Assembly: GCA_963662465.1 (NCBI GenBank)
Contig: OY759599.1
Location: 4,032,001-4,096,000 of the forward strand
Length of the DNA: 64,000 bases
DNA from: Desulfatiglandales bacterium
Lineage (GTDB): Bacteria; Desulfobacterota; DSM-4660; Desulfatiglandales; Desulfatiglandaceae
Reading direction: 5' to 3'
Below, piece after piece: positions 42,139 through 64,000 of this stretch (within the stretch, counting starts at the first letter, position 1; every line of letters starts with the position of its first letter). Made by a program: the position numbers and the translations under genes. The notes below the pieces were generated by a model. The model was not told the origin of the DNA, did not search any database, and worked only from the letters and a program-made list of their open reading frames with translations.

Positions 42139-42250
42139 ATTTACGCCTTGTCTTTATAACGCATGGCATTAAGAGAGGTCGGCCTAATGGTTTCCCTCAG
42201 CTCTTGAAGCATGCGGGTTTTCCGGCCGCTGCAAGCGGTAAGGAGTCATA

Positions 42251-47937: not shown

Positions 47938-47952
47938 AATCGGAGGTGTTTC

Positions 47953-48297: not shown

Positions 48298-48713
48298 TTG
48301 ATTTCCTCCAATAGTGTTTTGGGAGAGAGGATTTCCACCCCAAAATCTTTAACTCCTTTGAAATCTTTCCTGTTAAAAGTTGTGATGCTTTTTACACCAG
48401 ACGCCACCGCCAACTCGAGAACGTGATCATCTTTAGGATCAGGGAGAAACGGTCGCCACAAATAGTGGATTTTGTGCAGCGAACACAAAGCGCAAAAAGC
48501 GTCCAGCAGAGTCTCAATTTCTACATCGGTTAAACCCAATTTTTTGCTGTTTCGTTTCAGAACGTCCTCATATTCAAAAAGCAGGGCCACAGACATTACA
48601 GGCTTGACGCGTTTTTTCATGATGGCCTTGATAACCTGGAACGATGCACCAGTACTGGAATAAAGTCCTGCGTAAAGTATGTTCGTATTGATTACGGTGC
48701 GAATACCAACCAC
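48285..48713 (-). CDS. PIN-family toxin
   Basis: 'VINTNIL', 'EYEDV', 'DPKDDHVLELA', 'TFNRKDF'; first conserved Asp appears as Asn. Confidence 0.85.
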   Translation of the reverse strand: MVGIRTVINTNILYAGLYSSTGASFQVIKAIMKKRVKPVMSVALLFEYEDVLKRNSKKLGLTDVEIETLLDAFCALCSLHKIHYLWRPFLPDPKDDHVLELAVASGVKSITTFNRKDFKGVKDFGVEILSPKTLLEEIKWAL

Positions 48714-48856: not shown

Positions 48857-49570
48857 TCAATAAACATGGGGGTGTTTTAACGCCTGATGTTTATGGAAAT
48901 GGCTGTGCAGCGTTCCGGCCGCGCCGTTATAGGCAATTTTTCCGGCCGTCATAGTGTAGATTTTCCGGGTGGTTTCCTCCAGAAAATCGTATTCGTGAGA
49001 GACGATGACATAGCTGATGTCGAGACGGTTCAGGAGAGAGGCGATGGTGCTCCGGGCCTCTTCATCCAGGCCGGTGGTGGGTTCGTCCAGCAGGAGCGCT
49101 TTCGGCTGCATGACCAATACCGTTGCCAGGGAGACGAGCTTTTTTTCGCCTCCCGAAAGCCTGTGGGTAACGCGGTTTTCAAATCCTTTCAGTTTCAGCA
49201 TTTCAAGGGTTTCCATGGCCATGGAACGGGCCTCTTTGGGTGTTTTCCCCAGGTTGAGTGGGCCGAAAGCCACATCTTCCAGTACGGTGGGACAAAAAAG
49301 CTGATCATCCGCGTTCTGAAAAAGAAAACCGATGACGCGTCTGACCGTCAGAAAATCTTTTTTGCTTTCGACTGTTTTTCCCAAAACCCGGATACTTCCG
49401 GATGAGGGTTTGAGAAGCCCCATGATGATATGCAGCAGCGTGGTTTTGCCGCTGCCGTTATATCCGATCAATCCTACCTTTTCTTCTTCGGGAAGGGAGA
49501 ACTTCAGATTGTTCAGTACCGGCTTGTCTTTTTCATGGGAAAAGCAGAGGTTATCCAGTTCGAGAATCAT
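48857..49570 (-). CDS. cbiO: ECF Co/Ni transporter ATPase
   Basis: 'GYNGSGKTT', 'FQNADDQLF', 'LSGGEKK'; His-rich tail. Confidence 0.9.
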   Translation of the reverse strand: MILELDNLCFSHEKDKPVLNNLKFSLPEEEKVGLIGYNGSGKTTLLHIIMGLLKPSSGSIRVLGKTVESKKDFLTVRRVIGFLFQNADDQLFCPTVLEDVAFGPLNLGKTPKEARSMAMETLEMLKLKGFENRVTHRLSGGEKKLVSLATVLVMQPKALLLDEPTTGLDEEARSTIASLLNRLDISYVIVSHEYDFLEETTRKIYTMTAGKIAYNGAAGTLHSHFHKHQALKHPHVY

Positions 49571-50325
49571 TATGCGTGTACCCATTCAAGGATTAGTATG
49601 CCCAATAGGGTTGTGATGGTGCAGAACAGCCAGATCAAGTCCCGCCGCGATCGGGAAAATTCGGAAAGGGAATGGAATTTCCCGTTGAACCCGCGGCAAA
49701 GCATGGCCATGTAGACCCGCTCGGCCCGCTCCGAGGCCCGCACGAAAAGCATCCCCACGAGATAGGCGAATGTCCTGTAGGTGTGCAGCCGAGTGGACGG
49801 TTGAAACCCGCGGACCGCTGCTGATCGGACCAGCCGGTGATATTCCTCTTCCATAACGAAGATATACCGGTAATTCAGCAGCAGGAGATGCACCATTTTT
49901 TGTGGAACACCCAGCCTGCCGAGAGCTGCCCCCAGGCTTGCAACGGAACTGGTGGCGATGAGCGCAATAAAAGCCAGCAGTATGGCATTGCTTTTGAGCG
50001 TGATTCGGGCCGCAATCAAAACCCCCTCATGGGTTGCCGTGAAGGGTCCCAGGGAAAAAATGGGTTGGCCGGGGTAGGTAAAGGGGATCACAAACCAGAA
50101 GAAGAGAACAAAACCGTTTACTATCGCAACCCGTTTGCCCACTTCCCACAGGGGCAAGCGGGAGGTGCCCAGGAGAACAAAGGAAAAGGCGAGACTCAGA
50201 AAAAGAGGGGGAAATCGGTTTGAAAGGGCCACGACAAAGGCATAGAGCGTCGCCATGACAATCTTGAACCGGGGGTCGAGGTCGTGGATGGGGCTGGCGC
50301 CGTGCGCAAAGGGTTCCTGTAACAT
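49570..50325 (-). CDS. cbiQ: ECF Co/Ni transporter T component
   Basis: 'LDPRFK', 'YRYIFV', 'VRGF', 'AMLCRGF'. Confidence 0.9.
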   Translation of the reverse strand: MLQEPFAHGASPIHDLDPRFKIVMATLYAFVVALSNRFPPLFLSLAFSFVLLGTSRLPLWEVGKRVAIVNGFVLFFWFVIPFTYPGQPIFSLGPFTATHEGVLIAARITLKSNAILLAFIALIATSSVASLGAALGRLGVPQKMVHLLLLNYRYIFVMEEEYHRLVRSAAVRGFQPSTRLHTYRTFAYLVGMLFVRASERAERVYMAMLCRGFNGKFHSLSEFSRSRRDLIWLFCTITTLLGILILEWVHA

Positions 50326-50332
50326 AAATCCA

Positions 50333-50726
50333 TCAGCCTTTCTTGCGTGCGTCTATTTCACGGATTTTGCGGCGAAAGTGGATATAGGAGGCCAGGCCCA
50401 ATAAACCCAAAATATAGCCGATGCCGCCCAGAATATCGTGGAGGGTGGGCGCTTTGTCCTGGGATTCCGCAAACATTTTGAGTACCGGTCCGAGCCTTCG
50501 CTCCAGGGATTGGTCCAGAACGTCGCGCATTTGGTTCAGGTTGACGGAGGATGCTTCCATTGAATTTGCTTTCCGTGTGAACGGTATCGCCTTCCACCCA
50601 TGCGAATATGTTTACCCTGTGGGCCATTGCGGAACCGGACCACAGCAGGCAAAACATGAAAAGACATGCCGATCCAAAAGTAATTTGCCGGCATTGAATA
50701 GCATCAAAACTCAAAAATGTTTTCAT
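50333..50726 (-). pseudogene. CbiL/NikL-like protein with internal deletion and frameshift near 50560
   Basis: N-half 'AHRVNIFAWVEGDTVHTESKF' and C-half '...DILGGIGYILGLLG' are in different frames with the middle missing. Confidence 0.75.
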
Positions 50727-50736
50727 GATCTCCTTT

Positions 50737-51342
50737 TCACGAAATATTCCCGGACAGCATTTCAGGTTGAACTTTTTTCAAAAATGCCACACAGAAAGCG
50801 GTGATGATCCCTTCGATGATCATCACGGGAAGGTGCGCCGTCACCACCAGATAGGAGACTTTTAAAAAATTTTCCTCGGTGAAGGTCAGGGCCAAACCCA
50901 CCATGACGGCGCCCAAAAAGACGGAAAGCGATCCGCACAAAAAAGCCGCCGGCAAGGCAATGCGAGGCCCCTTTCCCACGAGCTTACCGAATAGATAATA
51001 ACATAAAACGGCGGGCAGGGCCATGATCAGGGTGTTGACCCCGAGGGTCGTGATACCGCCGAACTGAAAAAAAACGGCCTGGAGCGCCAACGCCACAAGG
51101 ATGACGGGAAAAGCCCCCCAGCCGAGAATAAGGCCCACAATCCCGTTCAGAATCAGATGAACACTGGAGGGACCGATGGGAACGTGAATCAGGGAGGCTA
51201 CAAAAAATGATGCGGAAAGAATCGCGGCACGCGGGATGCGGTCGTAATTCAGTTTCTTAAGCCCTATGGCAGTGCCGGCAGCGGCCAGCACAATGCCCGA
51301 AATAATCACCGGCCCGGACAGGACGCCTTCGGAAATATGCAT
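50737..51342 (-). CDS. cbiM: ECF Co/Ni transporter S component
   Basis: Diagnostic N-terminus 'MHISEGVL'; 'SVHLILNG', 'GGITTLGVN'. Confidence 0.92.
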   Translation of the reverse strand: MHISEGVLSGPVIISGIVLAAAGTAIGLKKLNYDRIPRAAILSASFFVASLIHVPIGPSSVHLILNGIVGLILGWGAFPVILVALALQAVFFQFGGITTLGVNTLIMALPAVLCYYLFGKLVGKGPRIALPAAFLCGSLSVFLGAVMVGLALTFTEENFLKVSYLVVTAHLPVMIIEGIITAFCVAFLKKVQPEMLSGNIS

Positions 51343-51402
51343 GATATGCCTTTCATAATTAGAGAGAAGCAAAGCTGTTTGATCAAAACCAAGACCGTTA
51401 TG

Positions 51403-51618
51403 CTATTTTTCTTTCCAATCAAGGAATTTTACCCAGAGGACCGCTCCCAGTTCCACGATTCCCTGAAAAACGTTTCCGGCATAGAGACCGAACGGCTTTG
51501 ACAGGGGAACGATCTCGGTTTTGAGTCCGATTTCCCGGTCCCAGCCTTCATCATCCCCAAAAGCCGCGACAACGGTTTTCGTATAGTGAACGATGAAACA
51601 GTCTTCCGCCGGTTCCCA
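51403..51618 (-). pseudogene. Remnant of a DUF4198 (NikM-domain) periplasmic Co/Ni protein
   Basis: Startless frame '[27 protein letters not shown]...[31 protein letters not shown]'. Confidence 0.75.
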
Positions 51619-51720
51619 TTATGATCATTTGCGGCCGCTCTCGAAGCGACCGTTTTGTTTTGAACCGATCCGATCGGTTCGTCTCTCAGTTCGCATGCGC
51701 ATGCCTTGCTGAAAACAGCC

Positions 51721-51776
51721 AAAAAAAAGCCAAAAAGACAGTTTCGGGTACACCCCCGATCCAGCCTTCTTGGCTT
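51721..51776 (-). terminator. Leader terminator/attenuator-like hairpin of the cbi transcript
   Basis: AGCCAAGAAGGC...GTCTTTTTGGCT followed by T-run on minus strand. Confidence 0.65.
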
Positions 51777-51807
51777 TTTTGGTTTTTGCTTCAGATTTAT
51801 TTCAGAT

Positions 51808-51869
51808 GTGCAATTTCGTATTGCACGTGCTATCGAGTGCTGAATAAACTCTTATTGCCGGGTTGTCAA
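51808..51869 (-). promoter_or_regulatory. Leftward promoter with 19-bp palindrome
   Basis: TTGACA-17-TATTCA, then GTGCAATACGAAATTGCAC. Confidence 0.6.
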
Positions 51870-52033
51870 GATATTTTCCTAGGGAAGGAATGCACCACCA
51901 CCCAAGATGATTTTCGTTAAACCTCTGGCAGAGAATTTAGTACACTTTTGTGTTCAGATCAACTGAAAGGGAAGGTGGAATGATGCGCAATCAAAAGGAT
52001 GCGTGCTTCAGCACCGGCGCTTTGATCTTTTGC

Positions 52034-52096
52034 TTGACAGAAAAACCGGTACTTGTTATAGGACCCGAATTCCTACGGCGCAAAACGAAATTGCGC
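52034..52096 (+). promoter_or_regulatory. Rightward promoter with 19-bp palindrome
   Basis: TTGACA-17-TATAGG with TG extension, then GCGCAAAACGAAATTGCGC. Confidence 0.65.
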
Positions 52097-52144
52097 GCAT
52101 GATTCAAAGCGTAAAGACTGACACAATTTAGGTTTTAACAAAAC

Positions 52145-52200
52145 AGGCCAAGAAGGCAATGTCGGATTGAAGTCCGGTGGTGTCTTCCCGGCCTTTTTTT
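52145..52200 (+). terminator. Leader terminator/attenuator-like hairpin of the receptor transcript
   Basis: AGGCCAAGAAGGC...GTCTTCCCGGCC followed by T8. Confidence 0.65.
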
Positions 52201-52471
52201 ATGTGCTATGGAAAAGGGAGGGGGTGATTGAAAAGAGTGAGACCATAATCGAAATCAGACATTAAGGATGGGAAGACAGCCAAGGTTCCCGCAAGGATAT
52301 ATGGCTGCCTTCCCGGTGGAAGCCCCTCGGATGGAGAGACGCCCGAATATTCTTTTACCATAAGCGTATTTTCCCCGTCAATTTCCTTCTGCTTCCAATC
52401 CGAGGATAAACAACCTTGAGCCGCTCTAATGCGTCCAAAACGCTACGGCGGAAACAACGAAGGAAACAATA

Positions 52472-54583
52472 ATGAAAAAGTATTCAAAATGGGGTCATGG
52501 GACCTTTATGTTCCTGGGTCTCTGGGTCGTGATGGTTTTTCTGCTGGGGGCGTCGGTTTGCCCGAGTGATGCGGAAGAGCCGGAAGACAAGAAGGCAATC
52601 GCCCAAACGGGAGAAAAAAAGGCAGGCGCCGGAAAGGCCGTGCAACTGGAAGATGTGACGGTGATGGCGGCGCAACCGGGCGTTGAAATTACGCCGGATA
52701 AAACCGTCATTCGAATGGATGAGTTCGTTAAACCGGGAGATGTGCGAACCCTTACGGACGTGTTGAAAACCATGGGGGGCATCGACGTTATGCGCGTTAA
52801 TCCCATGATGGCCAGTCCGGGAGATGAAGTGTCCATTCGCGGCATGAACGAAGGCCGTCTGGTGGTGGAAATCGACGGCAGGAGAATCAACCACAGCGGC
52901 TACTATGGAAGGTATATCGTGGACTGGTCAACGCTGAACATGGACGATGTCGAAAAAGTTGAAATCATCCGGGGTGGTCATTCGGTGCTGCATCCCTTTG
53001 CCATCGGCGGCGTGATCAACATCATCACCAAAAAGGGCAAAAAAACCGATGATCCCAAGCCCAATGTGCGCGCCAAGGCGGGTGTGGGGGCCTTCACCAC
53101 CACCACGGAATCCCTTTCCATTGACGGCGGGGCATTCAATGTGGTGGGCTATGATTTTTCAGTGAACAATGGTTCCACCAACGGTTACTTGCGGAACAAC
53201 TACCAGGACAGCACCACGCTCAATGGACATTTAAGTTTCTTTATGCCCATGGACGCAGTGCTGGAACTGGGGGTCAAGCATGCGGATGTAAATTACGGAT
53301 TTCCAGTGGTAAACGACCCCTCCCGGGCCGATTACGATGCCGGCTCTCCCAACTTTTATGCCAATGCCGACCAGCTCAGGCATCTGAACTGGCCCCAGTA
53401 TGCGGAAAATGATCCCAGTTGGAAAAAACATACCACCTACCTCGACGGCATATTCCGCATGCCCGCGGGGCCCGGGACCATCAATATTCACGGATACCTC
53501 ACCAATGGCAGGCGCTGGACCAGCCTCTACAATAAAATGGGTGTTCTTGAACCCGATGTGTTCATGGATGACCGCACCGAGGGGGTTATCGCGGAGTACC
53601 GGGATATCGATTTATTCGGATTCAACAAGGTGACCGTGGGGTATGAATATCAACTCCTGGGCGCCCCCAGTGAAATTTCGGACCTGTTCCGGGTTAGCTC
53701 CGGGTACATCCAGGACGTGATCACCATAGGGGATCAATGGCGCCTCACACCGGGGGTTCGTTATTACCATGTGGATATGAACACTTACTACTCCCAGTTC
53801 GGCAAAGGATGGCCCGTAGCCGGCAATACGGAGACGGATGAGGGGTTTTATCCCAGCCTGAGGGCCGACTTTCAAGCCACCGATGAAACCGCCCTTTATG
53901 CGGCGGTGAGCCGGTCCTATCGGCTGCCGTGTCCTTGAGACTACTACTGGTGGGCGCGGTGCGCGTCCGAGGAGAATCCCACGTTAAAACCGGAATCGGC
54001 CTGGGAATACGAGTTGGGCCTGATTCAGGATATGGATCCCATTAATTTGAGAGCCGCCATATACTACTATGACATCAAAAACTTCATCAACGACAACGGC
54101 ATTACGTCTCCCGGAACGGGCATCGGGAGCAACTGCCTTTACAACATTCCCCACTTCAAACTCTGGGGCGGTGAAATCGAGACGAGCCTTCGCTTGGGCC
54201 GGTTCCAGGGGACCCTTTCCTACAACTATCAAAACTACAATGCGGACAATACCGGATTTGAGGCGGACTGGTCCTATTATCTTCCCGCGCTTCTGCCCCA
54301 GAACAAAGTCAAGTTTCTGGGCAATTACGAGGTCTGGAAAGGCGGGATGGTTCAGTTGAGCAGCATCTTCGTGGATGAACGAAAGACCCAGCAGCCGGGG
54401 GTGGACGATCTGGACAGCTACATCACCTTTGATGCGGGGTTTCAGCAGTCATTTCATTTCGCCGGCGTTAACTGGCGGGCCGAGACCTACTGTAACAACT
54501 TTACGGGGGCCAATTACCAGGAACAGGCGGGATACCGCATGCCCAAATATGTTTGGGGGTTTCTGTTGAGCGCCCGATTTTAA
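52472..54583 (+). CDS. TonB-dependent receptor 2, 703 aa, with in-frame TGA at codon 489 (candidate selenocysteine, C-P-U)
   Basis: ORFs 52472-53938 and 54014-54583 share a frame: 'SYRLPCP-U-DYYWWARCASEENPTLKPESAWEYELG'; TonB box 'EDVTVMA', plug 'VEIIRGGHSVL', terminal F. Confidence 0.88.
53952..53968 (+). promoter_or_regulatory. Candidate bacterial SECIS hairpin
   Basis: GGGCGCG-GTG-CGCGTCC; G-led loop about 20 nt after TGA. Confidence 0.65.
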
Positions 54584-54609
54584 AATAGCCAAAAAAATGA
54601 GGTAAGATC

Positions 54610-55545
54610 ATGAAATATTACACCAATAAACGCATTTCAACCTGGTTTACAATTGCCTGTCTGGTCCTGGCGGCGGGATGGGTATTGCCATCCCCGGTCG
54701 CCGCCTGGGGAGGCCGGGGCCATCTGTACGTTATCGGCACCGGACCCGCGGGTCCTCAAACCGCCACGCTCCAGGCCCTTGATACCCTCAGAAGCATGGA
54801 TATCATTGTCGCCCCTCAAAAACATGTCAATCTGTTTGCGGAATATGTGGGCCAAAAACCCGTTCTGTTCGATCCGTGGACGGACATCTGGGACTACAAG
54901 GGAAAAAGCATGTGGAAGCTGGATGAAACGGAACTGGCGGCATTTAAGACGGAGCGCTTTAAAATCCGTGATGAGCGGGTGGCCAAAATTAAGGATGCAC
55001 TGGCCCGGGGGAAAGATGTGGGTCTCATGGACCACGGCAATCCCTGTTTATACGGTCCCAGCCACTGGTATGCGGAGCAGTTTGATCTTGATGATGTGAT
55101 TATCATTCCGGGGATGGGGTGCGACGCCGCGGCCATGGCGGCTCTTAAAAAAAGCACCATCCCCGCCCATGACAGCCATTTCGTCATTCAGACCGCTCCC
55201 TTTTCGCTGATGCGCTGGGGAGGGAAAGAACAGGCAATCCTCAAGGATATCGGCAAATACCCTTCGACCCTGATTTTCTATATGGCCCTTTGGGAGCCCG
55301 AAGCGTTGTTTACGGCGCTCAACTCAAGCTTTCCCCCGGATATGCCCTGCGCCGTGGTTTTCTGGGCCGGTTATCCGGAAAAGGAGCGGGTTCTTCGGGG
55401 AACCCTGGCGGATATGCCGGAAAAGCTTTCAAAAGACAAGGAAAAATTCATGGGATTGTTATTCGTGGGTCGGTTTCTTGAAGGCAACCCCTATGATGCC
55501 GCCATGAAACGGTCTCAGAAGGAATTGGGGAAAAACACGCCATAA
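54610..55545 (+). CDS. Tetrapyrrole (corrin/porphyrin) methylase-family protein with N-terminal signal peptide
   Basis: 'GHLYVIGTGPAG', 'DHGNPCLYG', 'IIPGMG'; preceded by a hydrophobic signal ending 'VAA'. Confidence 0.82.
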   Translation: MKYYTNKRISTWFTIACLVLAAGWVLPSPVAAWGGRGHLYVIGTGPAGPQTATLQALDTLRSMDIIVAPQKHVNLFAEYVGQKPVLFDPWTDIWDYKGKSMWKLDETELAAFKTERFKIRDERVAKIKDALARGKDVGLMDHGNPCLYGPSHWYAEQFDLDDVIIIPGMGCDAAAMAALKKSTIPAHDSHFVIQTAPFSLMRWGGKEQAILKDIGKYPSTLIFYMALWEPEALFTALNSSFPPDMPCAVVFWAGYPEKERVLRGTLADMPEKLSKDKEKFMGLLFVGRFLEGNPYDAAMKRSQKELGKNTP

Positions 55546-55684
55546 GGAGGGCTTTACGAATATTTTCAGAAGGAATTGCGGAAAAAGGGGAATGGTTTGT
55601 TTCCGTGACCCATGAAATTCCCTATGACGATAAAAGCGAATGCGACACCCAAAAATATAATGCCACGTTCACCTTTGACGTGAA

Positions 55685-55711
55685 GTAGGGGCGAAAAATC
55701 TTTCGCCCCCG
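55685..55711. repeat. GTAG-type REP-like palindrome
   Basis: GTAGGGGCGAAAAATCTTTCGCCCC. Confidence 0.5.
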
Positions 55712-55727
55712 CCATGAGGATTTAAAA

Positions 55728-57218
55728 ATGCTGTTTCGAAAGTTGATTTTGACCTGCATTCTAGTTGCGACGCTCTTTTTGATTCCCTGTTCTTCCCATG
55801 CCCACACGTACAGGGTTCCGGTTCTGGTGGACACGGACATGGCCCTGGACGACATGCGGGCCATTATTATGCTGTTAAATTCCCACATGGTGGATATCCC
55901 CCTTGTTGTGGTATCCGACGGCATTTCATCCCCTGAAAAGGGGGTTGAAAATCTCAAGGCCCTGCTGTCGCGCTTTGATCGAAACGGCGTCCACATGGCC
56001 AGGGGCAAGCCATCGGACATGCCGCCGCCTCCCGTCCGGCCGCTGTCTGAAAACATACAGTGGCCCCATAAGGGGGCATCATTTTCCCGGTCCATTGCGG
56101 CAAAAGATGCGCCTGGCGCCATTATCGAAACATTGAATGGGTTGCCCGGCCGGGTTGTTTATCTCTGCCTGGGACCCATGACCAACCTGGCCGAGGCCAT
56201 TCGACAGGCCCCCGGAATTCAATCCAAAATTTCCCGCGTCATCTATTTCGGGGATCATCCGAAAAGCGCCGACCCCGGTTGGAACACGACCCGGGATGTT
56301 GACGCCGCTGCCGGGGTTTTTGCATCGGGCATGGATATCTATTGCATTCACCCGGCCAAAAAAGACCTTCGTCCCTTTGATCGCAACATGCTGGAAAAAA
56401 TGGATGCCATTGGGTCCCCGGCGGCCAGGTTGGTATCCACCATTCACAAAGGGATTACGGTTCAAAAAGCCATTGATCAAGGGCATCTCATGATATGGGA
56501 CGAAAATGCCGTGATTTATCTGGAAAGCCCTGAGCTATTCAAGATGGAGCCCGTCTCAGGAGATCCATACCTCATGCGGCTGAACGGCTTCGATGCCGAA
56601 GGCGTACTCCGGGCCTATGTCGAATGCCTGGGGCGCCCGGCGGACGCCCATCTGGATGCCCGTCATGCGGTTGTGCTGAAGATGTTCCCCCATGATCCGC
56701 TTATGTTCAAACCGGATGTTGCGCCCCATGTGGACCGGATTATCAAACGGTACGGCATTGAAGAGTGGAAGGCCGCGGTTCTCACCCACGAGTTGCACCG
56801 GCACCTGGGCATCTATTCCCTGATCGGCGCCAAAATGGGCGTCAGGGCCAGGGAAATTCTGGATGCCCCTTTCGACGCCCTGAAGGTGGTTTCCCATGCG
56901 GGAAACAAACCGCCCCTCAGTTGCATGAACGACGGGCTTCAGGTGTCCACCGGCGCCAGCCTGGGGCGGGGAACCATTCGGATTGATGGCGAAAATCCAA
57001 TGCCTTCGGCAACCTTTATCTACCGAAACGAGAGGCTTGAATTGACCCTGAAACCCCGGTGGCGGGAAAAAATAAAGGCCGATATCAAGGCGGCCATTCA
57101 ACAATTCGGTGGCTTGAACAAGTCCTATTTTGCCCATATTCGAAAACTATCCATTGCATACTGGCATGATTTTAATCGTGGGGAGATTTTTGATGAAAAG
57201 CTGGGCCTGGCCAAATAG
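55728..57218 (+). CDS. Exported nucleoside hydrolase-like / FmdE-domain fusion
   Basis: Signal ending 'SHA'; 'VDTDMALDD', 'LGPMTNLA', 'WN...D', 'IWD'; C-term 'HELHRHLG...SCMNDGLQVSTGASLGRG'. Confidence 0.8.
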   Translation: MLFRKLILTCILVATLFLIPCSSHAHTYRVPVLVDTDMALDDMRAIIMLLNSHMVDIPLVVVSDGISSPEKGVENLKALLSRFDRNGVHMARGKPSDMPPPPVRPLSENIQWPHKGASFSRSIAAKDAPGAIIETLNGLPGRVVYLCLGPMTNLAEAIRQAPGIQSKISRVIYFGDHPKSADPGWNTTRDVDAAAGVFASGMDIYCIHPAKKDLRPFDRNMLEKMDAIGSPAARLVSTIHKGITVQKAIDQGHLMIWDENAVIYLESPELFKMEPVSGDPYLMRLNGFDAEGVLRAYVECLGRPADAHLDARHAVVLKMFPHDPLMFKPDVAPHVDRIIKRYGIEEWKAAVLTHELHRHLGIYSLIGAKMGVRAREILDAPFDALKVVSHAGNKPPLSCMNDGLQVSTGASLGRGTIRIDGENPMPSATFIYRNERLELTLKPRWREKIKADIKAAIQQFGGLNKSYFAHIRKLSIAYWHDFNRGEIFDEKLGLAK

Positions 57219-57672
57219 TTTCGTCCTTTTTATTGCGCTTCTGCTGATTCCCTGCGGACTTTTTGCGCACGGGGTCAAGGGAGAGATTGCCGTAGGGACC
57301 GGCGCTATGATTGTCACGGCCCGGTACAGCAACGATGAAGCTATGAGCTATTCCGAAACGACCATCCGCCCACCTGCCGGGGAATTGGATTTTCAGACGG
57401 GCAGAACCGACCGAAACGGCCGGTTCTGCTTTTTCCCAGATGCGGACGGCGATTGGGAGGTGACCGTTAATGATGGAATGGGACACCGGCTGAGGATATT
57501 GGTTCCCGTCAGCAAGGATAGCCCCCTTGCATCAGACCCCGTGGCTGCCCCTTTAACCGGAAATTCATCCGCTTTGGTTGCAAGAGCCCTTTCAGGTCTG
57601 TGCATTATCTTTGGCATTTCCGGGTGCTTAATATGGTGGAGAACCCGGAAGATCCATCAAAAAACGCCATAG
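57193..57672 (+). CDS. CbiL/NikL-like periplasmic protein with C-terminal TM anchor
   Basis: Signal then 'AHGV', 'FQTGRTDRNGRFCFFPD..GDWEV..NDGMGH'. Confidence 0.72.
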   Translation: MKSWAWPNSFVLFIALLLIPCGLFAHGVKGEIAVGTGAMIVTARYSNDEAMSYSETTIRPPAGELDFQTGRTDRNGRFCFFPDADGDWEVTVNDGMGHRLRILVPVSKDSPLASDPVAAPLTGNSSALVARALSGLCIIFGISGCLIWWRTRKIHQKTP

Positions 57673-57704
57673 GGAAGAAACGCTTCCAGTGGTAAGGAGC
57701 AACA

Positions 57705-58532
57705 TTGATGTCTCGTTTTTGTAGTTTTTTCGGGTTCTTATTCTTTTTTTGGGTCATACCTGCGTTTGTATTCTTCCCTTGCCAGGCCGGCTGTGAATCG
57801 GAGGTTCAACCCACGGCCCTGCAAGTCAAGCAGAATGCCGAAGCATCGGTAGAAATCCGTCGTCTGAGCCAGAAACGCGTTGATGCCTGGGCGGATAAAG
57901 AAGAAAAAATGCTCTTGGAAATTTCACGCCTTCAGAAAGATCTGGATGCGCTCAAGTGGAGAAGGAAAAAAACCGATACCTATCTCTCGGATCTGGAAAG
58001 TAAAATGGCGGCCTTAAATGAAGGAAGCCGTGCGGCAAAAGAGATTCAGGATGAATTGGAGCCTTTCCTGGAAAAGACCCTTCAGGACCTGGAAGCGTTT
58101 TCCGAAAATGAATTGCCGTCCCTGAGGGAACTTCAAAGCCCCGGTCTTCAATCGGCCAAGGAAATGCAGAATGATGCGGATGCCGATATGGTCCGGAAAA
58201 CCCGCGGCCTGCTGGAGCTTCTCATGCGGGCCGTGGAATACGGATATTTCGTGGAACCGGACCAGACCGATATCGTCATCGATGAAAAGATCATTCGCGT
58301 CAAACGCATCAGCGTGGGACGATTGGGGCTCTTTGCCCTGAGCGCCGACGGAGATCAAGCCTGGAAATGGCAGCCTGGGAAAGAGCAATATGAACCGATT
58401 CCCCATTTTGCCGGCGCCATCCGGGAAGCCATCCAGATCTGTGAACGAAGGCGTCTGGTGGAATTGGTGGAATTGCCCATGGGACCCCCTGTCAGCCCCC
58501 CTGTCAGCTCTGACAAGGAGGTGGAAAAGTGA
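57705..58532 (+). CDS. DUF3450-family protein (copy 2)
   Basis: Paralog of 42251-43078. Confidence 0.82.
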   Translation: MMSRFCSFFGFLFFFWVIPAFVFFPCQAGCESEVQPTALQVKQNAEASVEIRRLSQKRVDAWADKEEKMLLEISRLQKDLDALKWRRKKTDTYLSDLESKMAALNEGSRAAKEIQDELEPFLEKTLQDLEAFSENELPSLRELQSPGLQSAKEMQNDADADMVRKTRGLLELLMRAVEYGYFVEPDQTDIVIDEKIIRVKRISVGRLGLFALSADGDQAWKWQPGKEQYEPIPHFAGAIREAIQICERRRLVELVELPMGPPVSPPVSSDKEVEK

Positions 58533-59932
58533 GGGTTTTGCTCTGTCTGTTTTTTTTATGGTCCTTCCCGCCATTGCTTTTTGCCCAATCGTCCTCATTC
58601 AGCCGGGTGGCCCAAGAGGTAGAGACGGATTTGAAAAAGGCGCAGGCGGAAGAAACCCTCACCCTGGCCGATGTGGCCGAGAAACGCAAAGAACTCATGA
58701 CCCGGCGGGATCGCCTGATATCTGATATCAAAAGGGAAAGCGAAGCCCTTGCAGCTGACGAACTGCGGCTTTCGGAAATGCGGAAAAAGCGGCTGGAACT
58801 GATCCGTATGGTTCAGACCCACACGGGCCGCATGAAAGAGCTGGATGCGGCCATACGGGATTTTGCTCGTAATTTCTATAGTTTAGCTGAGCGTTCCGCC
58901 TATAGTGCTGAAACGCCCGACCGGTTGACGATTCTCAAGCATTTCCTGGATAAAAACAAAATTCTCGGGATTCAGGATATTCAAACCCTGGTGGCATTGG
59001 CTTTTAAGGATATGACGGCATCAGGGCAGATCATCCGGCGTGAAGGGGGAATGGTGGATCGTCGGGGAGAAACGGTCCAGGGGGCGATTATCCGCATGGG
59101 CAATCTTACCGCCATCTACCGGAGCGGGGGAGATGTGGGGTACCTCAGCCCGAGTCCCGCTTCAGGGAGGCTTTTGGTTTCCGCTCCCCCCGGATGGGGT
59201 GTTTGCCGGAATCTGAAACAGTATTTTGAAGGGGAAACCGATGACGTCTATATGGATATCTCGGGGGGCGCAGCCATCAAACAGATGGCGCGTAAAGCCA
59301 CCTTATGGGAGCAGATTCAGAGCGGCGGCGTGTTGGTATGGCCTATCCTGCTGGTGGGGTTGGTGGCCGTCATTCTGGTGCTTGAACGGCTTATCTTCCT
59401 GGGTCGGGTGCGGCACAACACCGACAAACTCATGACCCATGTGACGGAGCTGGTGGAAGCGGGCGATTACCGGGGCGCCATGAAGGAAACCGAGTCCCTG
59501 TCCGGCATGCCCACCAGCAATGTTTTAAAGGCCGGGCTTACCCAGCAGGGTCAGCCCCGGGACATCATTGAAAGCAGTCTGGCCGAGGCCATCCTCAAGG
59601 AAACCCCGCGTCTGGAACGATTTCTGCCCGCCCTCAAGGTGCTGGCGGCCATTGCGCCCCTTCTGGGGTTGCTCGGGACCGTGACCGGCATGATCAACAC
59701 CTTTCAGGTGATTACCGTTCATGGGACCGGCGACCCGCGCCTTATGGCCGGCGGGATCAGCGAAGCCCTCATCACCACCCAGCTGGGTCTGGCCGTGGCC
59801 ATTCCCATACTGGTGATCGCGGCCCTTTTGGGACGAAAAGTGAACCGCATTGCCTCGGATATGGAGGAAAAAGCCATGGCCCTGATCGCGGCCCTTTTAA
59901 GAGATCAGAGGGTTTCCCATGAACTGTCTTGA
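58529..59932 (+). CDS. Large MotA/TolQ/ExbB protein (copy 2)
   Basis: Near-identical to 43075-44478. Confidence 0.88.
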   Translation: MRVLLCLFFLWSFPPLLFAQSSSFSRVAQEVETDLKKAQAEETLTLADVAEKRKELMTRRDRLISDIKRESEALAADELRLSEMRKKRLELIRMVQTHTGRMKELDAAIRDFARNFYSLAERSAYSAETPDRLTILKHFLDKNKILGIQDIQTLVALAFKDMTASGQIIRREGGMVDRRGETVQGAIIRMGNLTAIYRSGGDVGYLSPSPASGRLLVSAPPGWGVCRNLKQYFEGETDDVYMDISGGAAIKQMARKATLWEQIQSGGVLVWPILLVGLVAVILVLERLIFLGRVRHNTDKLMTHVTELVEAGDYRGAMKETESLSGMPTSNVLKAGLTQQGQPRDIIESSLAEAILKETPRLERFLPALKVLAAIAPLLGLLGTVTGMINTFQVITVHGTGDPRLMAGGISEALITTQLGLAVAIPILVIAALLGRKVNRIASDMEEKAMALIAALLRDQRVSHELS

Positions 59933-60083
59933 AACCATGTGGCGCTTTGTTCAAACGGGAGGCCCCATCATGATCCCATTGGTGCTGATTTCCATCTGGA
60001 TGTGGTATCTGAATTCAGGGGGATCTCATGATATTTTACCGGGCCGTGGACCAATGGCTGGAAAGGAATACGCCCATGTTTAG
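59919..60083 (+). pseudogene. exbB: exbB copy 2 with 449-bp internal deletion plus 1-bp deletion
   Basis: Junction at 60012/60013 joins equivalents of 44558 and 45008. Confidence 0.9.
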
Positions 60084-60507
60084 AATCGGCAGCAGTCTTG
60101 GCGGCAACCGGGGGCTGGACGGCAGTGAAGACGCCGAACTCAACATGGCGCCCCTCATCGATATGATTTTTATCCTTTTGATTTTTTTCCTGGTCACCGC
60201 CACCTTTGTGAAGGAATCCGGGGTGGAGATCCAAAGGCCCGAAGCCGCATCGGCCCAGGACAAACCGGAGGCCGGACTTTTCATCGGCATCACCGAACAG
60301 GGGGAAATCTTCATTGACAAAACGCGGGTGGATTTAAGGAGCGTTCGCGGCATGGTGGAACATTTTTTGTTGGAAACCCCTTCGGGAGGCGTGATCCTTG
60401 AAGCCGACCGTTCCAGTCTCACGGGACGCCTCGTGGCGGTCCTGGATCAATGCCGAATGGCGGGGGCCGAAAATATCGCCGTATCCACCCTCAGGAGCGA
60501 ACCGTGA
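60076..60507 (+). CDS. exbD: ExbD (copy 2)
   Basis: Same protein sequence as 45072-45503. Confidence 0.9.
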   Translation: MFRIGSSLGGNRGLDGSEDAELNMAPLIDMIFILLIFFLVTATFVKESGVEIQRPEAASAQDKPEAGLFIGITEQGEIFIDKTRVDLRSVRGMVEHFLLETPSGGVILEADRSSLTGRLVAVLDQCRMAGAENIAVSTLRSEP

Positions 60508-61316
60508 GAACAAGGCCGGCAATGGTTTTTTCCAGCCGGAAAAAGCACGGTTATGGCCTTTTGGCCTTCCTTCTGTCGCTTCTCATCAATGTTGCCCTTT
60601 TCGCCATTGCCCCCATGCTCCTGGAACAGACCGGCGTGACGGACTTTTTGCCCCATGCCCTTCTGAATTTGAAAATGCCCTTACGGTCGGAACAACCGGG
60701 ATCTGAGTCAGAGCAAGACATTGAGATGAGCGATGAAAATCCCCAACCGGAGCCCATGGAACCGGAATTGGAAATCGATTCACCGGACGTACCGGAGATG
60801 TTGCCCCCCGAACTTGAAATCCCCCCACTGACATCTCCCCAGGATTCTTTCGATGAGCCTACCCCTGAAATATCCCGGTTGGAAATTCCCCTCAAGACCG
60901 TGTCCATGAAATCCGTACCCGTGGCCTTGCCCGCGCCCTCTGCCGCCCCAGCATCCGCGCCACAACCGGCTGCGCGGTCAAACCCGCAACCCGTCAAGGA
61001 ACACAAAAAAAACGGCGGTTATTCCCTGGGCCAGGTGGATGCGGCGCCGAGGGCCATGAATCAGATGCTCCCTCGCTATCCGCGCCGCGCCAGACAACGA
61101 AACATCGAGGGATGGGTGAAAGTCCGTTTTCTGGTGGATAAAGAGGGGCGGGTTCGGAACTTGCGAATACTGAAAGAATCCCCGCCGGACGTTTTTCATG
61201 AAACCGTCATGGAAACGGCGCCCCGGTGGCGCTTTCGCCCGGCCAAAAAGGGCGGGAGACCCGTGAACGTCTGGGTGGAACAAACCATTAATTTCAGGAT
61301 GGACGACGCATGGTAA
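60504..61316 (+). CDS. tonB: TonB (copy 2)
   Basis: Paralog of copy 1, linker 6 aa shorter. Confidence 0.9.
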   Translation: MRTRPAMVFSSRKKHGYGLLAFLLSLLINVALFAIAPMLLEQTGVTDFLPHALLNLKMPLRSEQPGSESEQDIEMSDENPQPEPMEPELEIDSPDVPEMLPPELEIPPLTSPQDSFDEPTPEISRLEIPLKTVSMKSVPVALPAPSAAPASAPQPAARSNPQPVKEHKKNGGYSLGQVDAAPRAMNQMLPRYPRRARQRNIEGWVKVRFLVDKEGRVRNLRILKESPPDVFHETVMETAPRWRFRPAKKGGRPVNVWVEQTINFRMDDAW

Positions 61317-62923
61317 ACCGGAAACGCACCTTTCTGATTGTCTTTATGCTGGTGTTTCCATGGGGCGGCAGCCTTTTCGGCGGACAATGCCCCCAGGAGA
61401 TGCCCCCCATGAACCCGGACCTTCACAAGTGCATGGTTAAGGCTGAAAAACTGATGGACCGGGGCCGGAACACGGAAGCCCTGACCCTGTTGGATTGTTA
61501 TGCTCGGGAAAACCCTTCTCAAAAACATCCTCATCCGGTTTTTGTCAGAGGACTTTTGAATTACCGGCTCAAACGGCTGAAAAAAGCAGAGGCCCTTTTC
61601 AAAACCGCCGTAGACCGTAACCCCTGCTTCGTTGAAGCCTGGCAAAACCTGGCGGTGGTGTACCATGACCAAAAACGACCAACCCGGGCCGCAAAATCAA
61701 TGGAACGGGTGCTGACCTTGTCAAAGGGTGAACAGCCGGATTTGAAATACCAGGCCGCCCTGTGCTGGCTGGCAGCGGACAAACCCGGAAAAGCCCTTCC
61801 CCTGCTTCAAGCCTTATCCCGGAAGAAATCGCCGCGTCCTGAATGGTTGACCAGTCTGGCGGAAGCCCAAAAAGCCCTTGGGCAGACGAAAAATGCGGCC
61901 ATGACCCTTGAAAAAGCCTACCGCAACGACCATGATCCTGAACGCCTTTACCAGGCAGCCCTGCTTGATTTGAAGGCGAAAGCGCCGGAAAAAGCGCTGC
62001 CTTCCCTGAAGAAACTGGCGGCAAGCCCCCACCCTGACGCTAAATGGATCATTCTTCTAGCGCTGACCTTAGACCAGCTGGACCACTGTTCCGAGGCCAT
62101 GGAGGTCATGGAAAGGACAGAGGTCAACAACCCGTCCCTGCCGGTTGAAATGCGCTTTCAGGTGGGGATCTTCTGGTTGAAGCGTGAGCGTCCCAAACAG
62201 GCCCTGCCCTGGCTCGAAGCTGTTTTTAAGGGTCCCAATCCCCCCGAAGGCGCCCGACGGGCTTATATCCGGGCACTGGTTTTGGCCGGAAAACCCCATC
62301 AGGCCGACCCCTTGCTTGGCGCCCTGTTAAAAGAAAACCCGGAGGACCATGGCATCTGGCGTCTTGCCGCATGGATATATATGGAACAGAAAGATTATCC
62401 CCGTGCCGCCGCCGCCCTCCACGTAGCCTATCGCCTTAATCCTCCGAACCCCGGCGAGTGGAAACGCCTGGGAGACCTGTATCAGCTTTCCGGCGTTCCC
62501 ATGAAGGCCGTCGACGCTTACGAAAAAGCCTTTGGTCCATCGCCGGGAGCAAGGGACCTGGATTTACTGGCCGAAACCTATATCGCGGCGAACCGGATGG
62601 AAAAGGCCCTTGCCGCGGCAGAGCGTGCCGTACGCTTGAAACCCACGGCGAAACGCTGGGCCAAAGTGGGAGACCTCTGCCTGAAATGCAGGGAGTGCCG
62701 CAAGGCAAAATCCGCCTTTCAACAGGCAGCGAAAATTAACGACAGGGGTGGGCTGATGAGCTTAAAGGAAGGATACGCCGCCTGGCAGTTGCAGGAGATG
62801 GCATGTGCGAAAAATGCCTTTCAAAAGGCGCTTCAGCACGCGGAGCCGAAAGGCGACACGGCTCTGAAAGCGTCCCATGCACTGGCGGCTATCCGGAAAA
62901 TCACGGATACAGCGCAAAATTGA
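61310..62923 (+). CDS. Exported TPR protein (copy 2)
   Basis: Paralog of 46324-47937. Confidence 0.85.
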   Translation: MVNRKRTFLIVFMLVFPWGGSLFGGQCPQEMPPMNPDLHKCMVKAEKLMDRGRNTEALTLLDCYARENPSQKHPHPVFVRGLLNYRLKRLKKAEALFKTAVDRNPCFVEAWQNLAVVYHDQKRPTRAAKSMERVLTLSKGEQPDLKYQAALCWLAADKPGKALPLLQALSRKKSPRPEWLTSLAEAQKALGQTKNAAMTLEKAYRNDHDPERLYQAALLDLKAKAPEKALPSLKKLAASPHPDAKWIILLALTLDQLDHCSEAMEVMERTEVNNPSLPVEMRFQVGIFWLKRERPKQALPWLEAVFKGPNPPEGARRAYIRALVLAGKPHQADPLLGALLKENPEDHGIWRLAAWIYMEQKDYPRAAAALHVAYRLNPPNPGEWKRLGDLYQLSGVPMKAVDAYEKAFGPSPGARDLDLLAETYIAANRMEKALAAAERAVRLKPTAKRWAKVGDLCLKCRECRKAKSAFQQAAKINDRGGLMSLKEGYAAWQLQEMACAKNAFQKALQHAEPKGDTALKASHALAAIRKITDTAQN

Positions 62924-63003
62924 GTTCGGTGGTATTTCATCTTCGTAAAACCGGTTGTGAGGGCATCCGTCCCACTTGATTACGGTATCTTTGGAAAAGG
63001 GAA

Positions 63004-64000
63004 ATGGCACGAGAAGAGCTTCAACGAGAATTCGGGCTGTCAACAGCCACCTATGTGGTCATCGCCAGTATGATCGGAACCGGGATTCTGGTTTCCCCCG
63101 GGTACATGATGGCGTCTCTCGGGAATTACCCCGTTATATTCGGGCTTTGGGCCATCGGCGGGTTGCTGGCCCTTTGCGGGGCACTTTGCGTGGCGGAATT
63201 GGCGGCCGCCCTGCCGCGGGCGGGTGGGGAGTACGTTTACCTTCGTGAAGCATACGGTCCCATGCCCGCTTTTCTCTCCGGTTGGACGTCTTTTTTTGTC
63301 GGTTTCTCAGCGCCCCTGGCTGTTGCCGGCTACGTTGCGGCTTCATACCTTTTGACGCCGTTTCAGTTCGCTAAAGACGAAACAGAACAAATGATCAAGG
63401 TGGTGGCCGTCGGCATTATCGTTGCAGTTACGTTGCCCAATCTCCTGGGTCACCGTCAGTCCGCCTAGACACAAAACCTCACGACAATTCTCAAGCTGGG
63501 TCTGTTTGTGGTTCTGGTGGCGGCCGCGTTTTTATGTGGCGATGGGCGCCTGGCGGCGCATATTTCACTGGGGCAGCCAATGGAAAAGGTGGGGCTGGAG
63601 ACTGCGGCAACACAGTTGTTCTATGTCATGTTTGCTTACAGCGGTTGGAACGCTGCCAGCTATATGGCCGGCGAGGTGAAAAATCCCGCGAAAACCCTCC
63701 CGCGGTCACTGCTTCTGGGCACCGGGGTTGTCATTGTGCTATATTTAGCGCTCAACCTTGTTTTTGCCTATGCGGTTCCTCTGGCCGGGGTGGGATTTGA
63801 CAATGCGGAACAGGTCCCCCAGATGGCCGTCCGAAATTTATTTGGCGTAAAGGCCGCGAGTGTTTTCAACGTTATGCTGGGATTGACGTTTCTGGCTACG
63901 GTGAACGCTTTCATTATCACCGGTCCCCGGATCTACTATGCCATGGCAAAAGATGGATTGTTCCCATCATTGGCGGGGCATGTCAGTCCCAAAGGGCGGG
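63004..64000 (+). pseudogene. APC-family amino acid permease with in-frame TAG at 63466-63468; runs off window end
   Basis: 'MIGTGI', 'GGEYVYL', then 'SA*TQNLTTILK...FAYSGWN...EVKNP', open to 64000. Confidence 0.75.

Follow-up and report, generated by a model that had tools for sequence, protein, structure and literature searches.

What does a selenocysteine (Sec)-containing outer-membrane receptor do beside a nickel/cobalt importer? We addressed this question for a gene cluster in a 64,000-nt stretch of a Desulfatiglandales bacterium genome (contig OY759599.1, 4,032,001-4,096,000; the whole stretch is called the window, and feature coordinates count from its first letter). A sequence-only reading had described the cluster as a candidate undescribed operon, headed by the Sec receptor, that would import a metallo-tetrapyrrole or metal chelate, bind or dismantle it in the periplasm and hand the metal to an energy-coupling factor (ECF) transporter. 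By listing open reading frames (ORFs) and scanning domains we recovered every gene named there, co-oriented and in place. The plus strand (52472-62923) carries the receptor, a methylase-fold gene, a nucleoside-hydrolase/FmdE (NH/FmdE) fusion, a NikL-like gene and a TonB/ExbBD set; divergent from it, the minus strand carries cbiM, a 122-aa NikL-like ORF, cbiQ and cbiO (48857-51372). We found that the genes are a conserved module in Desulfobacterota and that a compact leader RNA marks a TonB/ECF trace-metal uptake regulon. With modest confidence, we lean towards reading the cluster as one arm of a nickel (Ni), possibly cobalt (Co), acquisition regulon in Desulfobacterota that live where sulfide keeps free Ni and Co very low. 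The features at the core of the plus-strand operon are as follows.

52472..54583, plus strand: TonB-dependent receptor of 703 aa, a PCPU motif-type selenoprotein (NF049947; PF07715, Plug, and PF00593, barrel)
53936..53938, plus strand: in-frame TGA read as Sec (U489), in the context YRLPCP-U-DYYWW
53952..53968, plus strand: hairpin GGGCGCG-GUG-CGCGUCC resembling a selenocysteine insertion sequence (SECIS), 13 nt after the TGA and present in the minimum-free-energy fold
54610..55545, plus strand: class III methyltransferase-fold (TP_methylase-like) protein of 311 aa, predicted to be exported (PF00590, 98.9 bits)
55728..57218, plus strand: NH/FmdE fusion of 496 aa, predicted to be exported (PF01156, 87.9 bits; PF02663, 42.9 bits)
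57193..57672, plus strand: NikL-like protein with the likely start MKSWAW, in an ORF that opens at 57130 (NF058648, 60.2 bits, below the cut-off of 100)

When its TGA was read as Sec, the receptor scored 1128.6 bits on NF049947 (cut-off 800) and 1122.4 bits in the genome scan, and it has the P-C-P-U motif of this family with U encoded by the in-frame TGA. This TGA is not a chance event. In 7 of 7 PCPU-type orthologs it occupied the identical codon and the coding sequence was conserved on both flanks, and a PCPU receptor above the cut-off was found in 8 of 401 sampled genomes of the phylum, with one TGA in each (8/8). A PUIUD-type relative (in L019; L numbers denote loci) had two TGAs at the Sec site of the receptor. 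The SECIS-like hairpin was nucleotide-invariant in 6 of 7 orthologs, synonymous sites included; in L011 a single C-to-U change kept the pair as G-U. We rejected a SECIS call by energy alone, as the 71-nt fold was not better than shuffled sequences. The Sec machinery is present in the genome, with tRNA-Sec at C1:4234738-4234835 (C1 denotes own-genome coordinates) and selB at 382 bits (cut-off 242). Short contigs (X1 and X2) from two metatranscriptome runs of one study were 90-100% identical to parts of the receptor, methylase-fold and NH/FmdE genes. One such contig, from a relative, spans the TGA (53810-54045), with all of its listed differences at other positions. We take the metatranscriptome as weak evidence because DNA carry-over is possible and the contigs give no level, strand or attenuation; stretches that no contig covers are uninformative.

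The receptor itself is no different from the NF049947 PCPU family: it has the same motif, a TGA at that motif and a score above the cut-off. Since the family is already curated, the word 'undescribed' holds solely for the module and its regulation. NF049947 has the sister models PUIUD, CU and FCYXU, of which FCYXU was published as a new selenoprotein (Xiao & Zhang 2025, PMC12013277) and its type was listed in a 2026 review (PMC13188914). Neither the NF049947 name nor the accessible portion of PMC12013277 gives a substrate, gene neighbourhood or regulator.

The closest solved sequence relative of the receptor was the haem receptor PhuR (PDB 8the, 54.7 bits). In the alignment, the FRTP and NPNL boxes of PhuR are matched by YRLP and NPTL, respectively, Cys487-Pro-Sec489 comes directly after the first box, and Cys497 lies opposite Tyr529 (Y529) of PhuR. 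Loop L7 of PhuR holds the axial haem ligand in haem transporters (PMC10418163). Because Cys487, Sec489 and Cys497 align with the L7 segment, the Cys/Sec cluster is probably located in the ligand-binding extracellular loop. Other receptors found as partners of NH/FmdE do not have the Cys residues of this loop. Uptake of haem or an iron chelate, with a Ni/Co transporter that is merely adjacent, would account for the FRAP/NPNL-like boxes, for PhuR as the top solved match and for TIGR01785, the haem/haemoglobin receptor subfamily, as the best generic model. On the other hand, TIGR01785 gave 118 bits, far below its cut-off of 316.85, similarity to PhuR was low, and the Tyr/His axial-ligand position is occupied by Cys with Sec nearby. 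Domain scans of the mapped loci detected no haem oxygenase, HemS/ShuS-type or haem ATP-binding cassette (ABC) genes in the module, and the leader described below ties the receptor to the ECF operon. We regard a haem or iron-chelate system as highly improbable. BtuB models also fitted the receptor poorly (65-68 bits versus cut-offs of 600-836).

We then examined the partner proteins. The AlphaFold2 model of the methylase-fold protein had a predicted local distance difference test (pLDDT) score of 83.4, and its top PDB match was precorrin-4 C11-methyltransferase (3ndc, TMt 0.82, Foldseek E 3.4e-17); the glycine-rich motifs of the class III fold were kept. None of the biosynthetic equivalogs fitted, the best being TIGR01465 (cobM_cbiF) at 65.4 bits versus 259.65 and all others lower. 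A hydrophobic N-terminus followed by an A-x-A-like site was kept in 14 full-length family members of a 17-row alignment. With such an N-terminus, the protein would not reside in the cytoplasm with access to S-adenosylmethionine (SAM). The family has at least 326 members at E <= 1e-10; among 120 listed members, the named ones were proteins of Desulfobacterota metagenome-assembled genomes, annotated solely as 'SAM-dependent methyltransferase' or 'precorrin-4 methylase'.

The AlphaFold2 model of the NH/FmdE fusion had a pLDDT of 82.7, and its N-terminal part matched the nucleoside hydrolase 1yoe in Foldseek (TMt 0.77). The DTDxxxDD motif of the NH domain was kept, with D35, T36, D37 and D42 invariant in 12 of 12 sequences. 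The domain is not a member of the RihA/B/C equivalogs (RihC 67 bits versus a cut-off of 382), and the Asp of its C-terminal motif varied among Bacteroidota members. The FmdE part was the most conserved segment of the fusion, with H357, H359 and C399 invariant in 12 of 12 sequences, and its profile matched 2gvi (E 9.6e-9) and 2glz (E 8e-5). A profile was required for this assignment, as the PCNA matches from a single-sequence PDB search were spurious. The two His and one Cys align to metal ligands of 2glz; the fourth ligand position, a second Cys, is Gly. The metal site of 2glz is mixed Zn/Ni, mostly Zn, at the bottom of a wide groove (PMC2954224). The N-termini of NH/FmdE and its homologs have a variable hydrophobic segment and then an A-x-A-like site, so that this protein too, like the methylase-fold protein, is predicted to be exported. 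The NikL-like protein has a signal or anchor segment plus a C-terminal transmembrane segment, and its gene was kept after NH/FmdE in L010-L013. The gene had been called 'CbiL-like'; it is present, and the label is better given as NikL-like.

These folds raise the possibility of metallo-cofactor scavenging, in which the receptor would import a Ni- or Co-tetrapyrrole or a nucleoside-bearing cofactor (a cobamide, an F430-like compound or a Ni-pincer nucleotide), the methylase-fold protein would bind the macrocycle, NH/FmdE would cleave or strip it, and the metal would enter through the ECF importer. The haem-receptor relative with Cys/Sec in its axial-ligand loop, the precorrin-4 methyltransferase fold with its glycine-rich motifs and the kept DTDxxxDD motif all fit such a scheme, and so do BtuCDF/Fhu-like ABC importers in the leader regulon. 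A paralog in the own-genome locus L130 (C1:7572001-7590000) extends the theme of periplasmic cofactor-binding folds beside receptors: there, a 663-aa receptor is paired with a 586-aa Oxidored_molyb-like (molybdopterin-binding-like)/TP_methylase protein, divergent from a WtpA-type tungstate ABC transporter and an HTH/PBP-like regulator. Several observations do not agree with this scheme. The methyltransferase equivalogs are far below their cut-offs, and to our knowledge SAM is not expected in the periplasm. Stripping Co or Ni from a corrin or hydrocorphin is chemically hard, and the module has no ring-opening enzyme. NH/FmdE also partners receptors that have neither the Cys/Sec loop nor a methylase-fold gene, and the regulator in Bacteroidota is NikR. 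No cobalamin riboswitch was found at three own-genome loci, which counts against corrinoids specifically. We consider metallo-cofactor scavenging unlikely, and nothing shows that a tetrapyrrole or corrinoid is bound or dismantled, as had been supposed.

Conservation of the neighbourhood was analyzed from two starting points. Through NH/FmdE we found 20 loci in species-representative genomes and mapped them with a protein panel. Eight of them had a Sec-type receptor (L010-L014, L019, L020 and L021, with L019 of the PUIUD type), and in all eight the receptor was split at the same codon and lay upstream of NH/FmdE. The methylase-fold gene was between the two in 6 of these 8 loci (not in L012 and L021), and a DUF4198 gene was present in 7 of 8 (not in L012). 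The recurring order was receptor, methylase-fold gene, DUF4198, sometimes an APC permease, NH/FmdE and the NikL-like gene. Independently, starting from the receptor, we examined the 8 of 401 sampled phylum genomes mentioned above, 7 of them other than our own. The methylase-fold gene followed the receptor directly in 7 of 7, and within the fetched stretches NH/FmdE was present in 2, DUF4198 in 4 and the permease in 3 of the 7. NH/FmdE also follows unrelated receptors, in L015 and L016 (where the receptor comes after a DUF169 gene) and in L028. In Bacteroidota the order NikR, receptor, NH/FmdE was found in 4 of 5 loci (L022, L023, L024 and L026). As a separate observation, NH/FmdE in the Bacteroidota loci L023 and L025 is beside CGGC-domain, ferredoxin-inserted MinD/ParA-like and NUBPL-like P-loop proteins, DUF1847 and OsmC, a recurring, metal-cluster-like neighbourhood.

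The divergent operon on the other side of the receptor has the following features.

48857..49585, minus strand: cbiO/nikO, ECF ATPase (PF00005; TIGR01166, 179.7 bits, below the 211.8 cut-off)
49570..50325, minus strand: cbiQ/nikQ, ECF T component (PF02361; TIGR02454, 157.7 bits, cut-off 111.8)
50358..50726, minus strand: 122-aa NikL-like ORF (N-terminal match to NF058648, 34 bits, cut-off 100; no Pfam match)
50737..51342, minus strand: cbiM/nikM, S component (PF01891, 201 bits; NF004905, 285 bits, cut-off 173)
51394..51909, minus strand: remnant of nikK (DUF4198) with its upstream region, with internal deletions and oprB gone (blastn fragments versus L009)

All core ECF components (M, Q and O) are thus present in the window. 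The cbiM ORF extends to 51372; its likely ATG start gives MHISEG, and NF004905 aligned from residue 11. The nikK remnant matched L009 at 4131-4194, 4406-4580 and 4951-5242 (93-98% identity by blastn). The transporter appears to be of the NikK/NikL type, with DUF4198 (intact in L009) and NikL-like proteins, and no CbiN was seen. Zhang et al. 2009 (PMC2667541) place NikK/NikL with Ni transport and CbiN with Co transport. On the basis of this classification and of the NikR context in Bacteroidota, nickel would be the metal transported by the ECF importer. The divergent arrangement of module and ECF operon recurs in the relative L013 and in L009, a paralogous locus of our own genome; together with the leader RNA common to both operons, this upheld the proposed tie of the module to the transporter. 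A PIN_3 toxin-like ORF (48285-48713, minus strand) adjoins cbiO.

The sequence-only reading had noted leader motifs common to the two divergent operons. These proved to be real and strongly non-random, and they form part of the following elements.

52034..52062, plus strand: sigma-70-like promoter of the receptor operon (TTGACA, 17 nt, TATAGG), kept in L010, L011 and L013
52072..52199, plus strand: leader RNA copy of the receptor operon (model R1, cmsearch 85.6 bits)
51722..51832, minus strand: leader RNA copy of the nikK-cbiMLQO operon (model R1, cmsearch 86 bits, E 4.3e-13)
52275..52365, plus strand: second structured element of the receptor leader, a 12-bp stem GGGAAGACAGCC/GGCTGCCTTCCC and then GCCCCTCGG

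Both operons have a common layout of a TTGACA-type promoter, the hairpin GYGCAA-NACGAAA-TTGCRC, an A-rich linker and a terminator with the 5' arm AAGCCAAGAAGGC, followed by a T-run. In the receptor leader these are the P1 hairpin GCGCAA-AACGAAA-TTGCGC, a linker, the terminator GGCCAAGAAGGC..GTCTTCCCGGCC and a T-run. Further copies were found in our own genome at C1:4101055-4101165 (minus strand), 4103336-4103463 (plus strand) and 4380474-4380583 (plus strand), so that the genome has five, each upstream of module/ECF operons or of another TonB receptor; the fifth precedes another receptor at C1:4380649. A pattern scan of metagenome contigs identified 100 leader loci. A T-run was present in 73 of them, most of which had TTGACA about 40 nt upstream, the same distance as in the receptor operon. 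When 46 leaders were aligned, three helices were supported: 90.9% of cells were paired versus 86.9% in 500 shuffles, none of which was as high, and pairing dropped to 36-51% when the partners were slid. Changes on both sides of the helices were found in 51 cells, versus 19 expected. The many G-U pairs in the helices argue for an RNA over a DNA operator. The invariant core columns of the alignment were imposed by the search pattern and are uninformative.

The covariance model R1 also found more divergent leaders in which the P1 stem was fully changed while the ANGAA loop was kept. The terminator 5' arm, GCC-ANGAA-GGC, could form a mini-hairpin with a P1-like loop. This may point to a two-hairpin antiterminator, with the two similar hairpins as possible competitors of the terminator. 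L131-L139 did not contain the exact leader pattern, and the covariance model gave no more than weak matches there, in L132, L135 and L136. No Rfam family matched at E <= 1 in 40000-64000, none that was relevant (for the leader or the second element) at E <= 10 in 51373-52480, and none that was relevant in L130 or L009 at gathering thresholds. The second element, which comes after the leader terminator and ahead of the receptor start codon, was seen solely in Sec-receptor leaders; it was kept with paired changes in L010, L011, L013, L014 and L021, and also in L064, L069 and L134. A leader-peptide reading of 52200-52470 was dropped, as indels between close relatives break the frame.

ANTAR targets are protein-dependent dual-hairpin antiterminators with hexaloops, and NiCo/czcD elements are metal riboswitches. 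Both resemble the present leader in being short 5' leaders with a hairpin and an intrinsic terminator. We did not retain an ANTAR target reading, as the leader loops are ANGAA pentaloops and not ANTAR-type hexaloops. The NiCo riboswitch controls efflux, whereas the leader described here controls uptake genes. The sole ANTAR-domain protein of the genome, a 251-aa GAF-ANTAR protein in L167 (C1:4139254-4142409), is encoded 44 kb downstream of the window, with a UPF0066/TrmO-like ORF preceding its gene; a link of this protein to the leader RNA is possible.

Of the canonical metagenome leaders, 57 were followed by 400 nt or more of sequence, and their downstream genes were counted as follows.

7/57 loci: Sec-type receptor (6 with the methylase-fold gene)
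9/57 loci: nikK-led ECF operon
2/57 loci: OprB
5/57 loci: APC permease and NikL-like gene
11/57 loci: other TonB receptors
6/57 loci: TonB-system genes
1/57 loci: receptor, NH/FmdE and NikL
4/57 loci: ABC-like genes only
12/57 loci: no panel match

A Pfam scan of 48 proteins encoded downstream of metagenome leaders added stand-alone FmdE-domain proteins (L047, L057, L075 and L091), sets of a receptor with Peripla_BP_2 and FecCD (L046, L100, L081, L091 and L031), a receptor with DUF4198 (L083 and L107), DUF3842 (L040 and L098) and, at the single locus L085, a receptor with ZnuA and ABC-3. The R1 leader likewise precedes the receptor-NH/FmdE pair of L015 and L016 and the Sec receptor of L020. 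There was no copy before the 790-aa receptor at 39766 of the window, in the Bacteroidota loci or in the tungstate locus L130.

NikR senses Ni ions, and we found that it and the leader almost never occur in the same genome. The R1 leader was present in 15 of 151 sampled phylum genomes (13 of 111 genera), and NikR_C in 72 of the same 151 genomes. Fourteen of the 15 leader genomes had no NikR match, and the remaining one (G008) had merely a 22.7-bit match inside an 811-aa frame. No NikR was detected in our own genome by PF08753 or by tblastn with Bacteroidota NikR. This near exclusion and the position of NikR ahead of the orthologous receptor-NH/FmdE pair of Bacteroidota together point to the leader system as a replacement for NikR in Ni-responsive control. 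The count is not an independent test or a statistical proof, because the genomes are related.

The composition of the regulon also bears on a chalcophile-metal system that is wider in range or serves other metals (Zn, Cu, Mo/W or a mixture), in which the Cys-Pro-Sec loop and the periplasmic proteins would handle several sulfide-sequestered metals and the leader would govern TonB-dependent trace-metal uptake generally. Such a system would be consistent with the leader ahead of the ZnuA/ABC-3 locus and of TonB-system operons, and with the methylase-fold partner in the WtpA locus. FmdE, moreover, is named after Mo-formylmethanofuran dehydrogenase operons, and the solved site is mostly Zn (PMC2954224). 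The counts are against it, since nikK-led ECF operons (9/57) and permease-NikL operons (5/57), with more loci that have DUF4198 or NikL-like genes, compare with only one of the ZnuA type. Likewise, NikR adjoins the orthologous receptor-NH/FmdE pair and is almost mutually exclusive with the leader, and the tungstate locus has no leader copy. We judge a broader metal system to be quite improbable.

The window copy of the cluster is a partly eroded, decaying mosaic, and the paralogous locus L009 retains the lost parts. The remaining features of the plus strand show this.

55554..55582, plus strand: scar of a missing DUF4198 (nikK-like) gene, corresponding to L010 9130 to 9833
57705..58532, plus strand: DUF3450 protein of TonB set copy B (PF11932; 88% aa identity to copy A)
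58529..59932, plus strand: long MotA/ExbB-family (TtpC-like) protein of copy B, 467 aa (PF01618; 98.7% aa identity to copy A)
59919..60084, plus strand: exbB remnant of copy B, with a 449-nt internal deletion between 60012 and 60013
60077..60507, plus strand: ExbD of copy B (PF02472)
60450..61316, plus strand: TonB of copy B (PF03544)
61310..62923, plus strand: TPR protein of copy B, 537 aa (TPR families; 94.8% aa identity to copy A)
63004..64000, plus strand: APC-family permease that runs off the window (PF13520 in both halves; in-frame TAG at 63466-63468)

The TonB/ExbBD set had been called dedicated to the receptor, and this description did not survive the comparison. The set is a recent, damaged duplicate: copy B (57681-62938) is 96% identical in nucleotides to copy A (42227-47952), a six-gene TonB2-type set that sits after the different, 790-aa receptor. 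The exbB deletion breakpoints were placed by blastn at 44558/45008 in copy A and 60012/60013 in copy B, with the intact ExbB of copy A at 44465-45079. Beyond nikL, no similarity was left in L010 (about 90% nucleotide identity) and L013, the closest relatives, and the TonB set was not there. Vibrio TonB2-type systems have the same order (DUF3450, long MotA/ExbB, ExbB, ExbD, TonB, TPR); copy B differs from them by its broken exbB and as a recent intragenomic duplicate.

In L010 and L013 the methylase-fold and NH/FmdE genes are separated by a DUF4198 gene of about 700 nt, which the window lacks at this place; DUF4198 was found at the position of the scar in L010, L011, L013, L014, L019 and L020. 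The APC permease occurs within the module in L011, L013, L014, L018, L021 and L028, and an intact paralog is found in L009. This own-genome locus (C1:4096001-4116000) is just beyond the window, about 15 kb downstream. It has intact nikK, oprB and cbiM-L-Q-O, plus a transposase and a degraded Sec receptor copy, as well as a second complete set consisting of a 766-aa receptor, a double methylase-fold lipoprotein, DUF4198, a NikL-like protein and the permease. Decay is thus reciprocal between the window locus and the duplicated locus. Elsewhere in the window we noted a minus-strand FecCD/ABC ATPase/Peripla_BP_2 importer operon (24229-29698) with a radical-SAM::Peripla_BP_2 fusion (599 aa) and a class I methyltransferase, and a defence-like plus-strand pair (36053-37902) of an AAA_21/AAA_15 ATPase and a DUF4276 protein.

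In the Ni (possibly Co) acquisition reading that we favour, the receptor would capture Ni(II), free or on a small ligand, by thiolate/selenolate coordination. The capture site would be Cys-Pro-Sec and the further Cys in the loop equivalent to the axial-ligand loop of haem receptors, and TonB energy would drive the cargo into the periplasm. There, the exported methylase-fold protein, the DUF4198/NikK-like protein (lost here), NH/FmdE with its His-x-His...Cys site and the membrane-anchored NikL-like protein would take the cargo over. They would then pass the metal to the divergent NikKMLQO-type ECF importer and perhaps also to the APC-family permease. A single 5' leader RNA (ANGAA-loop hairpin plus intrinsic terminator) would switch both operons, standing in for NikR. 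The scheme builds on observed gene content, module conservation, Sec recoding signals, folds, the common leader with its covariation and regulon, and the near exclusion of leader and NikR. From these we infer the metal, the direction in which it is handed over, what the methylase-fold and NH/FmdE proteins do, and the direct or protein-mediated sensing by the leader. Nickel is favoured because of the apparent NikK/NikL type of the ECF transporter, NikR in the Bacteroidota loci, the leader/NikR exclusion and the His/His/Cys site in FmdE. Of the earlier salvage proposal, a metal-uptake module co-regulated with the ECF importer was retained, and the dismantling of corrinoids is unproven.

A number of observations weigh against the nickel acquisition reading. 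Binding and transport of Ni or Co by the cluster proteins are predictions from their sequences. Some NikKMLQO systems, in a few proteobacteria, are predicted to carry Co (PMC2667541), so cobalt may also be a cargo. The receptor is similar to haem receptors, and the usual ligands of the methylase fold are tetrapyrroles. That fold is also found beside the receptor of the WtpA tungstate locus and hence is not Ni-specific; it is therefore a general receptor partner in trace-metal loci and not a marker of Ni or corrin. The Peripla_BP_2/FecCD and ZnuA/ABC-3 operons of the regulon would fit transport of chelates, corrinoids, haem or Zn/Mn as well. The genomes behind the leader-NikR exclusion are related and come from 13 genera, and three of them are 61-79% complete. 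Several module genes are gone from the window copy (nikK, oprB and the internal DUF4198), its exbB is broken and its permease has a TAG. For the receptor, the fold energy of the 71-nt SECIS region gave z = 0.53 relative to shuffles, and the transcript support consists of short contigs of relatives from a single study.

A more far-reaching version combines several of these elements into 'cofactor and chelate mining' by Desulfobacterota of sulfidic sediments. Sec-bearing, haem-receptor-like transporters would import Ni/Co macrocycles or other organometallic cofactors, and exported methyltransferase-fold, NH and FmdE proteins, with a molybdopterin-binding-like domain in the tungstate paralog, would bind and strip them in the periplasm. 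The metal would enter through ECF or ABC importers, and the regulon would be under an unrecognised Ni-responsive leader RNA, either a riboswitch or an antiterminator target, that replaces NikR. We offer this version as a speculation and think it rather unlikely to be correct as a whole.

The cluster can be set beside several known systems. It has in common with NikKMLQO/CbiMNQO importers (PMC2667541) the M, Q and O components, a NikL-like protein and, at the paralogous locus, a DUF4198/NikK-like protein. Unlike in those systems, the importer is coupled here to a Sec receptor, a methylase-fold protein, NH/FmdE, an OprB-type porin and an APC permease. The coupling consists of the divergent arrangement and the common leader, and PMC2667541 never mentions 'TonB' or 'outer membrane'. 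Known Ni(II) TonB-dependent transporters include FrpB4, FecA3, CntO, NikH and others (PMC11247825). The concept is the same, namely TonB-energised outer-membrane passage of Ni that feeds an inner-membrane importer, often under NikR. The window family differs in being a selenoprotein with a haem-receptor-like loop and other periplasmic partners.

Exported homologs of tetrapyrrole enzymes occur in other uptake loci, such as periplasmic CbiK(P) of Desulfovibrio and IhtB/HmuS of Porphyromonas. These likewise place a cytoplasmic-type tetrapyrrole fold with a signal peptide beside a TonB receptor, but the fold is a chelatase there and a class III methyltransferase fold here. We found no published description of the module, its partner proteins or the leader regulon in the literature searched, which missed one possibly relevant paper, and the conserved module and its regulation appear to be undescribed.

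Anaerobic carbon and hydrogen cycling has hydrogenases, CO dehydrogenase/acetyl-CoA synthase and corrinoid enzymes at its core, and these enzymes depend on Ni or Co. How cells acquire these metals where sulfide depletes them is poorly known. The module is a candidate for a structural use of Sec in an outer-membrane transporter, as a metal ligand instead of a redox centre. It is also a candidate source of two new classes of periplasmic partner made from cytoplasmic enzyme folds. The leader RNA may be a compact mark of the whole uptake regulon and a seeming stand-in for NikR. It is the most directly testable piece of this system and could be used as a genomic marker for further trace-metal uptake genes.

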